64,000 nucleotides of DNA from a virus (taxonomy: Duplodnaviria; Caudoviricetes): positions 3,004 to 67,003 of IMG/VR virus record IMGVR_UViG_3300014059_000011, one strand, 5' to 3'. Positions 982 through 5,178 of this stretch are shown here, one piece after another (the stretch's first letter is position 1; the number at the start of each line of letters is the position of its first letter). Made by a program: the position numbers and the translations under genes. The notes beneath the pieces are model-generated. The model was not told the origin of the DNA. It worked only from the letters and a program-made list of their open reading frames with translations, and made no database searches.

Positions 982-1018
982 TGCCCGCCCTGGGATTCGA
1001 ACCCAAACTGTAGGGATT
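982..1018 (-). pseudogene. 3' half of a split tRNA-Leu(UAA)
   Basis: AATCCCT ACAGT TTGGG TTCGAAT CCCAG GGCGGGC A = anticodon 3' strand, T-arm and acceptor 3' strand. Begins directly after the CCA of the intact tRNA-Leu. Confidence 0.75.
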
Positions 1019-1100
1019 TGGTGCGGGCGACAGGAGTCGAACCTGCATGCCGAAGCAAATGGGCTTAAACCATTCGTGTCTACCGTTTCACCACGCCCGC
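1019..1100 (-). tRNA. trnL: tRNA-Leu(TAA), long variable arm, CCA encoded
   Basis: GCGGGCG/CGCCCGC acceptor; AATGG-TTTAAGC-CCATT anticodon arm; TGC-TTCG-GCA variable arm; GGTTCGACTCC T-loop; ACCA end. Confidence 0.95.
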
Positions 1101-1568
1101 TCGATTTATATTTTTTCCTCTATATGTTTCTGTTTGTGCATGACAGTTAGGACATAAAAGACATAAGTTGTCAATCCTATTATCATTGTTTATTCCGTTG
1201 ATATGCTCTAATTCAAGAGCTATATCTTGTCCATTCCAAGTTGTTAACTTGCATTTTGAGCAACGCTTCTCAAAAATTTCATGCTTTAATAGCAAGTTTT
1301 TTAACTTGTAACTGCCTATTTTGCTTCCGTTAGTAAGCCACTCATCAAGCGAACGCCCCCTTTTTCCTTGTGGATAAGTTTTATTTTTGCTCCATCCTTG
1401 ACCAAGGAAATGATCAGTGTCTAGGCCGCAATCAATTATTGCTTGCTTAATTGTTTTGTAGTTTCCACCTGCCGGAACAAGATTCAACTTCCTCAACACT
1501 TGAGCTATTGACTGCGACCCAGACACTGCTTCTTCTAAATCACTTTCTGTCCATCGTTTTTTAGTCAT
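1080..1568 (-). CDS. HNH homing endonuclease
   Basis: CSKC...LELEHINGINNDNRIDNLCLLCPNCHA. Stop codon lies inside the 5' end of the tRNA-Leu. Leaderless -10 TATACT at 1575-1580. Confidence 0.9.
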   Translation of the reverse strand: MTKKRWTESDLEEAVSGSQSIAQVLRKLNLVPAGGNYKTIKQAIIDCGLDTDHFLGQGWSKNKTYPQGKRGRSLDEWLTNGSKIGSYKLKNLLLKHEIFEKRCSKCKLTTWNGQDIALELEHINGINNDNRIDNLCLLCPNCHAQTETYRGKNINRAGVVKR

Positions 1569-1590
1569 AACAATAGTATACCAGAAAGCG

Positions 1591-1631
1591 TTTTAAAAGT
1601 CCCCTCTCTCTACCAATTGGAGTACACGGGC
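1591..1631 (-). pseudogene. 5' half of a split tRNA-Leu(UAA)
   Basis: GCCCGTG TA CTCCAATTGGTAGAGAG A GGGGA CT TT TAAAA = acceptor 5' strand, D-arm and anticodon 5' strand, then non-tRNA sequence. Confidence 0.75.
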
Positions 1632-2969: not shown

Positions 2970-3230
2970 TTAAATCATATTGAGGTATTCGAAATCTTCG
3001 ATCATTGCAGCAGCACCATCAATGTCATCGCCAAGCATATCGTAGAGAGCGTTAAGCTTCATACCACGATCAGCATCAATAACATTGTTGCAGGACCAAC
3101 CGAGTGCAGCACAACCATTCTTGCGGAAAGCTGCACTTACCTCGTCAAACGTCTTGTTCTGCTCATCTGCAACGTCATGAAACTCATAAACGTCTACTCC
3201 TTCGTTGCACTTTTTACAGTAGATATCCAT
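2970..3230 (-). CDS. Small CxxC protein (N-terminus encoded within the EndoVII 3' end)
   Basis: MDIYCKKCNEGVDVYEFHD...; overlaps the EndoVII gene by 37 nt. Confidence 0.75.
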   Translation of the reverse strand: MDIYCKKCNEGVDVYEFHDVADEQNKTFDEVSAAFRKNGCAALGWSCNNVIDADRGMKLNALYDMLGDDIDGAAAMIEDFEYLNMI

Positions 3231-3664
3231 TGAATCGCTCTTTCCAGTAGGTGAATATCATCATTTAAATGACCGATTGCAACATTGCAATTGTGGCATA
3301 ATAGCCCACGCACTACGCCAGTTGAATGATCATGATCAACAAACGCTTCTCGTTTGGTTTTTCCGTTAATTTCAGTGTTGAGCTTTTTGTCACAAATGCC
3401 ACAACAAGAATTTTGTCTTGCAACAATTTTCTCATAATCATCTTCAGATAGACCATAAGTCCTTTTCATATGAGAAAACGCCACTGAGCGTCTTACTTTT
3501 TCTCTACGCTCAGGTCTAGCTTCATATCTTGCTTTTTCATATAAGCCCTTGCATGGCTTACATATGTAATATGGGCGATACCCAACCTTGTCTCCCCAAG
3601 TTTTTTTGATCCTTGGAAAATCATCTATAGGTTTTTCAATTTCACAATGAGCACATTTCTTCAT
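3194..3664 (-). CDS. Endonuclease VII-family (homing-type) endonuclease
   Basis: N-terminal CxxC/CxxC; CGIC...VDHDHSTGVVRGLLCHNCNVAIG. Leaderless TG-a-TACAAT at 3671-3676. Confidence 0.9.
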   Translation of the reverse strand: MKKCAHCEIEKPIDDFPRIKKTWGDKVGYRPYYICKPCKGLYEKARYEARPERREKVRRSVAFSHMKRTYGLSEDDYEKIVARQNSCCGICDKKLNTEINGKTKREAFVDHDHSTGVVRGLLCHNCNVAIGHLNDDIHLLERAIQWISTVKSATKE

Positions 3665-3757: not shown

Positions 3758-4255
3758 CTAAACTAGTGGCTCAAGGCCGGGATCGGTTACACGAATAACA
3801 AACAGACCAAGCGATTCCCACATCTTGATTACTTGCTCCCTGTCATCAACAACAAAGCTTACATCAAATGGTCCGTTGATGTTATTGATATGAGCATCAT
3901 AAAGCTCTCGCTTTACAACATCATCAGCCCGATAATCACCACTCTGTCGCATCAGAAGAGAAAATGAAATTGGGGTCTTTGGATTGTCATCCATGAAGGG
4001 ATCAATCACATGATCAAAAAGCCAGTCAGTAGTTTCCTTCCTGAAATCATTTGATCTGCCAGAAGTGAAGAAAACGACATGATCCTCCATCCAGGCATTC
4101 CATACGATATCTCTAACCCCCGGAACAACACGATCATAGACCATGTTGAAGTTAAAATTCTTCCAATCCTTCTTCTTGCCGGTTACAAAATGACGTCGAT
4201 GCTCACAAGAAGTGAGCGTTCCATCAAGATCAACAATGATTGCTCTAGGATTCAT
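3758..4255 (-). CDS. HAD phosphatase, PseT/Pnkp 3'-phosphatase-like (stand-alone domain)
   Basis: IVDLDGTL, FTSGR, VVDDR..V..MW motifs. Confidence 0.85.
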   Translation of the reverse strand: MNPRAIIVDLDGTLTSCEHRRHFVTGKKKDWKNFNFNMVYDRVVPGVRDIVWNAWMEDHVVFFTSGRSNDFRKETTDWLFDHVIDPFMDDNPKTPISFSLLMRQSGDYRADDVVKRELYDAHINNINGPFDVSFVVDDREQVIKMWESLGLFVIRVTDPGLEPLV

Positions 4256-4460
4256 TCTCTTCCTTCTCTAGAATTGGATAGTTGTCAATAACAGTCTTCC
4301 ATTGTTCAAGAACACGACCCCACTCATCAAGAAGCCTCTTCTTCTTAAAGAGCCTCCACCACGGAGCAACTTCAAACTTTCGCCTTGCTACAATGGCTTC
4401 TCTCTCTGCTGCATCCATACTAGCAATCCATCGCTTCACTTTAATCTCGTTAATGGTCAT
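4245..4460 (-). CDS. Hypothetical protein
   Basis: 71-aa ORF overlapping both neighbours. Confidence 0.6.
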   Translation of the reverse strand: MTINEIKVKRWIASMDAAEREAIVARRKFEVAPWWRLFKKKRLLDEWGRVLEQWKTVIDNYPILEKEENES

Positions 4461-5178
4461 CTTTCACTCCCTCTGTAGTAGGCTTAAGCCACATATCCCT
4501 GAAAATAGCAACCACCATCTTAGGTGAGCAGTAATGATTCAGATACCACAAAGTATATGCAGTATCAGAAGCAAAGCACTTTTCCATTTCAACCCTGCGA
4601 CGATCAACAGAAAGCTCGCCCATCTTCTCAACAAAATGATCATCAGTCATTGTTGCGATAATCTCAGGATCAATGAAAAAGCCCTTGGTGATAGAAAATC
4701 GAATAGCCCTCAGAATTCTCAGAGTGTCCTCATTGAATCTATCCTCAGCATTACCGACGGTACGCAAGATATTTCTTGCAAGATCATCCCTTCCGCCAAA
4801 AAGATCAATAACTTCATCAATTGATCCACCGGCAGGGATAGCCATTGCATTCACCGTAAAGTCACGGCGAGAAAGATCATCAAAAAGAGAACCGGGAGTC
4901 ACATCTTCTGGTCTACGACCATCAACGTACTCACCATCCTTTCGGCACATAACGAAATCCGTGGCCATCTTTTTGATTCCGGTAATCTCACCAGTGATAT
5001 CAAGAGCACGAATTGTAAGATACTCAGGAGTCTCTACGAAAATCTTACCACCACGCTCAACGATGGCATCACGCATCTCATCGAAAGAATCACACTCAAC
5101 TGCGTAATCGTAATCCTTGACCGGAAGACCAAGAAGCATGTCACGAACAGCCCCACCAACAAGATAAAAGTTAGCCAT
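4450..5178 (-). CDS. tRNA nucleotidyltransferase (CCA-adding)/poly(A) polymerase family
   Basis: YLVGGAVRD, KDYDY, DLSRRDFTVNAMA, EDTLRILRAIRF. Confidence 0.92.
   Translation of the reverse strand: MANFYLVGGAVRDMLLGLPVKDYDYAVECDSFDEMRDAIVERGGKIFVETPEYLTIRALDITGEITGIKKMATDFVMCRKDGEYVDGRRPEDVTPGSLFDDLSRRDFTVNAMAIPAGGSIDEVIDLFGGRDDLARNILRTVGNAEDRFNEDTLRILRAIRFSITKGFFIDPEIIATMTDDHFVEKMGELSVDRRRVEMEKCFASDTAYTLWYLNHYCSPKMVVAIFRDMWLKPTTEGVKDDH

Follow-up and report, generated by a model that had tools for sequence, protein, structure and literature searches.

An HNH endonuclease gene with its own tRNA-Leu(UAA) inside a split phage tRNA-Leu(UAA) gene: a probable scar of homing without an intron

Introduction

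On the usual view, a homing endonuclease can survive in an essential gene only under the cover of an intron or intein, or else by residing between genes. A locus in a phage genome raises the question of how a nuclease gene can come to lie directly inside a tRNA gene, and what became of the tRNA that it interrupts. The locus is found in a 64,000-nt stretch of DNA (the window), which belongs to a 67-kb IMG/VR record with an estimated completeness of 61%; the portal protein of this record shares 45% identity with the portals of Streptomyces phages of roughly 130 kb. Here, the two halves of one tRNA-Leu gene are separated by an HNH gene and a second, complete tRNA-Leu(UAA). We consider the locus probably to be the scar of intron-less homing by an HNH homing endonuclease specific for tRNA-Leu(UAA), which left the old gene dead and an imported tRNA in its place.

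Results

Anatomy of the locus

The two halves of a single tRNA gene were read directly from the minus strand at positions 1631-1597 and 1018-982. The 5' half (1597-1631) runs from G1 to U34 and consists of the acceptor strand GCCCGTG, a 3-bp D stem, an 11-nt D loop, the anticodon-stem strand GGGGA and the loop bases CTT; its assignment is based on sequence, homology and ARAGORN calls on artificial joins. The 3' half (982-1018) begins with the loop bases AA and continues with the anticodon-stem strand TCCCT, a variable loop of 5 nt (ACAGT), the T arm (stem strands TTGGG and CCCAG around TTCGAAT), the acceptor strand GGCGGGC and A73 at position 982. In addition to sequence and homology, an exon-pairing script returned this half as the partner of the 5' half at a gap of 577 nt.

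This gap is the whole insert (1020-1596, minus strand), which separates U34 from A36 in the outer tRNA. Its left end is a leader of 28 nt (1569-1596), followed by the HNH ORF of 162 aa (1080-1568; identified by ORF calling, a phrog_10822 match and alignment) and by an intact tRNA-Leu(UAA) with a long variable arm (1019-1100; supported by ARAGORN, Rfam RF00005 and loop comparison), so that the non-coding space of the insert amounts to the 28 nt plus the tRNA. The sequence-only reading of this DNA had described an HNH cassette that splits a tRNA-Leu gene at the anticodon and brings a complete tRNA-Leu(UAA) along, and this description holds in all its coordinates, the inner tRNA being called by both ARAGORN and Rfam.

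The outer gene is broken in the anticodon loop between CTT and AAATC. Alignment with intact relatives showed that the gene is retained up to U34 and from A36 onwards, counting the A of the inner CCA, and that A35 is missing. The halves had also been proposed to rejoin into the loop CTTAAAA, which the locus itself does not support: A35 is lacking even with the A of the inner CCA included, and CTTAAAA is deduced from homologs. The junctions can alternatively be parsed with the A run of the loop repeated at both of them (CTT-TT-AAAA before CGC on the left, CACC before AAA-TCCCT on the right). The leader starts with TTAAAA, possibly repeating part of the target loop.

An extended -10-like element, TGGTATACT, is located at 1583-1575 (minus strand), 6 nt upstream of the HNH start codon ATG. 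This spacing fits a leaderless mRNA, and the element is a putative promoter. The promoter previously suggested in front of the HNH gene comes down to this extended -10 element, which is absent from the output of a sigma-70 scan that demands a -35 element.

The tRNA region is flanked by genes for a metallophosphoesterase (1-558), a stand-alone Pnkp-type phosphatase (3758-4255) and a CCA-adding enzyme (4450-5178, minus strand). An endonuclease VII gene (3194-3664, minus strand; Pfam E 2e-22) lies 1.5 kb from the locus; it had been described in the initial reading as inserted in a CxxC gene and may represent a second selfish-nuclease insertion in the region.

The HNH gene is probably active

The HNH ORF matches phrog_10822 (HNH endonuclease) with an E-value of 1.4e-49, and the Pfam families HNH and HNH_3 match it weakly, under their cut-offs. 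In an alignment of 14 sequences, the residues H122, N134 and H143 as well as the zinc cysteines C103, C106, C139 and C142 are invariant. Because the catalytic His/Asn/His residues and all four zinc cysteines are preserved, the intact gene is probably active. The protein has hundreds of relatives with 45-59% identity, one of which is named F-TflIV after an enzyme of the phage T5 tRNA region, and the identical protein has been recorded from 7 contigs. In a tree of the family, the window protein forms a long branch with weak support and without firm placement in any of the context classes described below.

The inner tRNA as a likely replacement

ARAGORN called the inner tRNA as an 82-nt tRNA-Leu(taa) with A73 at 1022 and an encoded CCA at 1021-1019, and Rfam RF00005 matched it with 54.3 bits (E 8e-10). 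It folds into a canonical class II cloverleaf of the bacterial type with the anticodon loop TTTAAGC. The HNH stop codon (TAG, 1082-1080) sits 21 nt into this tRNA, as had been noticed before, and the last seven codons of the HNH gene (AGVVKR and the stop) are provided by the 5' end of the tRNA. The inner tRNA is likely a working replacement for the outer gene, and it would be expressed and supply UUA/UUG decoding.

The closest matches to the inner tRNA were the spliced exons of L149 (72%), the tRNA of L134 (70%), which also has a TTTAAGC loop, and, locally, a tRNA-Leu(tag) of Streptomyces phage Annadreamy (77%). With best values of 70-77%, no match was close enough to name a donor.

The inner tRNA departs from the conserved motif GACTT/AAAATC (the slash marks the break) at 5 of 11 positions, which would fit a resistance to the nuclease. 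However, the loop CTTAAAA is kept in 49 of the 53 intact tRNAs beside HNH relatives, and therefore either the loop alone is not the whole target or immunity works otherwise.

The outer gene belongs to a family of short-arm tRNA-Leu genes

ARAGORN did not call the split gene in intron mode (-i). At its default threshold, it accepted all artificial joins of the halves as tRNA, the anticodon varying with the register of the join. The joined halves are 85% identical to two intact tRNA-Leu genes with a short variable arm (L087 and L042). The members of this family have an unusual D arm with a 3-bp stem and the 11-nt loop CAAxxGGxAGA, and the halves in the window show the same form. This identity, together with the same odd D arm, indicates that the halves belong to one gene and are not a chance match. 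Readings of the outer gene as tRNA-Trp(CCA), tRNA-Lys(UUU) or a suppressor were rejected as register artefacts of the joins, since the homologs set the ancestral loop as CTTAAAA.

A BLAST search with the 5' half led to an unannotated stretch of cyanophage S-T4 and to an annotated 74-nt tRNA-Leu of phage Sf-FR1. ARAGORN recognized both as tRNA-Leu(taa) (L002:2503-2575, which has no annotation in the GenBank record, and L003:1503-1576, respectively). Both tRNAs have the unusual D arm of the halves, in which pair 10-25 covaries (C-G, A-T, T-A), together with the loop CTTAAAA and a variable loop of 5 nt. A pattern scan of IMG/VR placed the short-arm family in at least 119 viral contigs. Among the matches listed, all 120 complete copies are uninterrupted; they comprise 42 unique sequences with CTTAAAA or CTTAGAA loops, each of which holds a leucine anticodon. 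Uninterrupted alleles of the outer gene, which had been suggested as a check together with testing the joined halves as a tRNA, therefore exist in other phages as tRNA-Leu genes with 85% identity. As a side observation, the family as a whole (L002-L122) is class-I-shaped and carries the leucine anticodons UAA or UAG, with a few CAA or GAG.

The G-G mismatch at acceptor pair 7-66, correctly recognized in the earlier reading, is also present in the intact relative L042, and hence it is no sign of decay. Apart from the lost A35, the halves show no decay at all, which fits a recent event and would equally fit selection that keeps the halves. In its present state, the outer gene is very probably dead, as its loop lacks a base, no feature marks a cut after U34 and searches of the incomplete 67-kb record turned up no RNA ligase.

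The insert contains no ribozyme

Group I introns of tRNA-Leu(UAA) genes occupy the very site at which the outer gene is broken, and exon pairing showed that this break is common to all split relatives. For the insert and for the window, Rfam gave no group I intron match, neither at the gathering threshold nor at E<=10. This result alone is weak, because Rfam also misses the ORF-bearing introns of relatives, and we therefore built a family profile (nhmmer) from 11 unique ORF-less tRNA-Leu introns. As a positive control, the profile matched 23 of 23 ORF-bearing relatives, in one or two pieces around the ORF, with E-values from 1e-8 to 1e-41. With filters off, it had no match at E<=10 in positions 900-1750 or in the whole window. 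The non-ORF part of the intron spans 210-320 nt in the relatives, compared to 28 nt plus the tRNA in the window. Furthermore, the leader contains no GAG/AAG guide to pair with the 5' exon, and no terminal G precedes the 3' half, as the insert ends in GCACC(A). A reading of the insert as a group I intron was rejected on the Rfam and family-profile results with their positive controls. The insert is without a ribozyme and cannot self-splice.

The HNH family is tied to tRNA-Leu(UAA) genes

The genomic context of the HNH family was surveyed at 240 loci (160 viral and metagenome, 80 bacterial) using the exon-pairing script and a classification of the arrangements. Of the 160 viral and metagenome loci, at least 135 have the HNH gene together with a tRNA-Leu(UAA) gene, as do most of the 80 bacterial ones. 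The HNH gene lies beside an intact tRNA-Leu(taa) in 91 of the 160 loci, beside a tRNA split by an ORF-less intron of roughly 200 nt in 21, and inside a split tRNA, in sense or antisense orientation and with gaps of 672-959 nt, in 23; the remaining 25 loci are unclassified, many of them on truncated contigs. All splits in these relatives fall between CTT and AAAATC. In 80 viral loci, the HNH gene nearly always adjoins a tRNA-Leu(taa), and many of them contain un-called 3' exons behind a signature typical of the 3' end of group I introns. The presence of such introns was confirmed by Rfam in five loci.

Intron-borne HNH genes occur in both orientations. Antisense cases, inserted near position 93 of the profile, were found in L123, L135, L136, L149, L157 and L200, and sense cases in the P1-loop region in L159, L162, L175, L177 and L189. 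Bacterial examples fall within L292-L369 and include many chromosomes. Identical HNH proteins adjoin intron-containing and intron-less tRNAs (L138/L139 versus L140), and in L147 a group I intron interrupts a short-arm tRNA-Leu. Four tRNA-Leu(UAA) genes beside HNH relatives carry an insert of 42 nt at the same site between CTT and AAAATC (L154:2310-2432, and 2334-2448 in each of L190, L191 and L193; all minus strand). These inserts are far too short for a ribozyme and could be intron remnants or something else.

The bacterial loci, among them Hymenobacter, Pyrinomonadaceae, Gammaproteobacteria and Saccharibacteria, repeat the viral patterns. Frequently, the HNH gene is located directly upstream of a chromosomal tRNA-Leu(UAA) or overlaps it, and in about 25 loci the end of the gene is at most 9 nt away from the tRNA or lies within it. 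In L300, an HNH ORF of this bacterial group (1501-1983) enters the 5' end of a tRNA-Leu(UAA), which starts at about 1966, and stops at the TAG of the D loop. The Hymenobacter proteins end in RAGVVE and the window protein in RAGVVKR, and both tails are encoded by the tRNA. The overlap design of the window recurs in L297, L315, L336, L351 and L353. In light of this recurrent arrangement, the insert can be regarded as a module of known shape placed inside another tRNA gene.

Similar scars in other contigs

A mirror image of the nested locus is present on a metagenome contig of 1550 nt (L216, 581-1249). Here, the 5' piece of a long-arm tRNA-Leu is followed by an intact short-arm tRNA-Leu(taa), the HNH gene and the long-arm 3' piece, whose acceptor strand can pair at 7 of 7 positions; ACTGT is found on both sides at the left junction. 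In addition, orphan 3' halves that begin at the A run of the anticodon loop follow an intact tRNA-Leu and then an HNH gene in L145 (2975-3019), L176 (3214-3257) and L241 (634-680), and an orphan 3' half or T-arm piece lies beside an HNH relative in L148 (2319-2343, minus strand). In L241, the HNH ORF terminates within the orphan tRNA piece. These pieces, the nested locus of L216 and the intron-containing and intron-less neighbors are the traces of anticodon loops that were broken repeatedly and repaired imprecisely.

Close relatives of the phage itself were found neither via a flanking protein of 83 aa, searched in viral contigs, nor with exact patterns in viral and metagenome contigs. Loci with metallophosphoesterase neighbors of about 40% identity have no such tRNA. 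The HNH relatives searched are at most 59% identical. None of these searches yielded an uninterrupted allele at this position or the exact arrangement a second time. The proposal of a mobile HNH-tRNA unit that invades tRNA-Leu(UAA) genes is supported in part: the family tie, the recurrent HNH-into-tRNA module, L216 and the orphan halves speak for it, but no close relative shows a one-piece move in this phage.

Discussion

Origin of the nested locus

The following course of events would account for the locus. The phage would once have held an intact tRNA-Leu(UAA) gene with a short variable arm, and a nuclease of the HNH family would have broken its anticodon loop at or next to the U34-A35 step, where the group I introns of the family sit. 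The putative donor was a compact module with its own promoter, the HNH gene and a long-arm tRNA-Leu(UAA) that overlaps the end of the ORF. This module would have been captured between the two broken ends, with the loss of A35. Capture is preferred over a clean conversion because donor and short-arm recipient have too little sequence in common. Both the position of the cut and the order of events are deduced from the present arrangement.

The same end state could have arisen from an HNH-bearing group I intron in the short-arm tRNA (5' exon, short leader, HNH gene in the P1 loop, ribozyme, 3' exon), if recombination with an HNH-tRNA module had swapped the ribozyme for the tRNA-Leu and thereby killed splicing. 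Loci of the Bacteroidales type (L299, L305 and L327) indeed have a 5' exon, a leader of about 24 nt, the HNH gene and a ribozyme overlapping the ORF end, which the window parallels with its 28-nt leader and a tRNA in the place of the overlap, and L147 demonstrates that a short-arm tRNA-Leu can harbor a group I intron. However, this route needs two crossovers, one homologous and one illegitimate, as opposed to a single capture. The family profile detects no trace of a ribozyme, the leader lacks the GAG/AAG guide and the window HNH protein falls outside the grouping of the sense-in-intron proteins, which makes the loss of a ribozyme an unlikely origin. Still more improbable is an assembly artefact, in which reads of two phages were joined at tRNA-like repeats. 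Although the contig was assembled from metagenomic data, with tRNA genes acting as short repeats, both junctions are exact and nested and keep to the register of one tRNA gene, and the inner and outer tRNAs are too dissimilar to mislead an assembler. Moreover, the identical HNH protein appears on 7 contigs and the same kind of nesting in L216, which comes from an unrelated sample; of all the explanations, we give this one the least weight.

Hardly more credible is a functional outer tRNA that works in a split or spliced form. RNase P and 3' processing would free the pieces, the halves would anneal and be ligated or stay nicked, and the embedded tRNA would act as the intron. The end of the insert coincides exactly with the 3' end of the inner tRNA, pairing is intact in all outer stems, and a CCA-adding enzyme, a Pnkp-type phosphatase and a metallophosphoesterase are encoded within 4 kb. 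On the other hand, the 7-nt loop CUUAAAA cannot be rebuilt from halves that lack one loop base, nothing specifies a cut after U34, and the RNase P cut would fall about 496 nt downstream of the left junction. As a whole, the insert is not tRNA-shaped, because its 5' end pairs into no tRNA-like helix, and a promoter-like element inside it uncouples the halves. Searches for the RNA ligases Rnl1, Rnl2 and RtcB found none in the 67-kb record, which is 61% complete, with the Rnl1 search run without a working control. The annealed, nicked tRNA-like RNA once contemplated for this locus finds no support, given the missing loop nucleotide, the undefined 3' end of the 5' half and the searches of the 67-kb record, in which no RNA ligase was found. 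A tRNA-shaped intron removed by tRNA-processing enzymes and a ligase was likewise discarded, as the 5' end of the insert is unpaired and no RNA ligase was found. Intron-less homing with capture of a replacement tRNA thus remains the origin that we favor.

Comparison with known systems

The HNH enzymes F-TflI, F-TflII and F-TflIV of phage T5 and SegB of phage T4 are free-standing homing endonucleases in phage tRNA regions (PMC2330249; PMC13096335), and SegB has no isotype preference (PMC13096335). They share with the window gene the position among phage tRNA genes, where cutting of a tRNA gene leads to the co-conversion of the nuclease and neighboring tRNAs. In contrast to these enzymes, which are encoded between intact tRNA genes, the window family is tied to tRNA-Leu(UAA), and the window HNH gene is located inside the target together with a spare. 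In collaborative (trans) homing, as summarized in a review (PMC3984707), endonuclease genes invade introns (Zeng, Bonocora and Shub 2009; Bonocora and Shub 2009). The HNH relatives display a comparable series, being free-standing beside an intron, inside an intron or beside an intron-less gene, but the target in the window is neither shielded nor repaired by an intron and a second copy of the gene does the job. The same review also cites I-SspI, an endonuclease borne by an intron in the Synechocystis tRNA-fMet gene (Bonocora and Shub 2001, cited in PMC3984707). With the group I intron found in tRNA-Leu(UAA) of cyanobacteria and plastids, the locus has in common the interruption in the anticodon loop after U34, and many HNH relatives reside in true introns at this site; unlike that intron, the insert has no ribozyme and no terminal G, and one exon base is lost.

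The nrdA gene of Aeromonas phage Aeh1 is reportedly split by an insertion of mobE without an intron. Here as in the window, a homing endonuclease gene was inserted straight into its target without a self-splicing RNA. Fractured genes with split inteins represent another case of interrupted genes (PMC2677866). While the protein pieces still cooperate in Aeh1 nrdA and in split-intein genes, the interrupted RNA gene in the window is most likely dead, and the carried replacement serves in its place. The insert also resembles integrative elements in that it restores the tRNA function and leaves displaced tRNA fragments. Such elements insert in tRNA genes by means of an integrase and att sites and restore the gene by duplicating a part of it; the insert, by contrast, lacks an integrase, and what it brings as a replacement is a complete tRNA of unrelated sequence.

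The literature searched contained no account of an HNH family devoted to tRNA-Leu(UAA), none of a cassette of a nuclease and a spare tRNA inside a tRNA gene, and no description of HNH genes carried in the tRNA-Leu(UAA) introns of phages and bacteria.

Implications for the HNH family

More tentatively, the HNH-plus-tRNA module may be a distinct, recurrent mobile element of a cut-and-replace type. Its nuclease would destroy resident tRNA-Leu genes, while the module would carry a nuclease-resistant spare with a changed anticodon arm (GGTTTAAGCCC for GACTTAAAATC); with a resistant spare carried along, neither an intron nor flanking homology would be needed. The embedded tRNA would also throttle the nuclease: by cutting at the tRNA 5' end, RNase P would take away the stop codon of the HNH gene and thus produce a non-stop mRNA.

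Beside concealment in introns or inteins and residence between genes, the locus represents a third way of existence for a homing endonuclease, with the nuclease gene inside its RNA-gene target and the damage paid for by a carried spare. In phages and bacteria, the classic tRNA-Leu(UAA) intron, usually described without an ORF, often carries an HNH gene or adjoins one. Around a single 11-bp target, the relatives make up a natural series, in which the HNH gene is found beside an intron-less gene, beside an ORF-less intron, within the intron in either orientation, fused upstream of a tRNA, and nested together with a spare. This series makes the long-discussed origin of mobile introns by collaborative homing and subsequent intron invasion testable with natural alleles.
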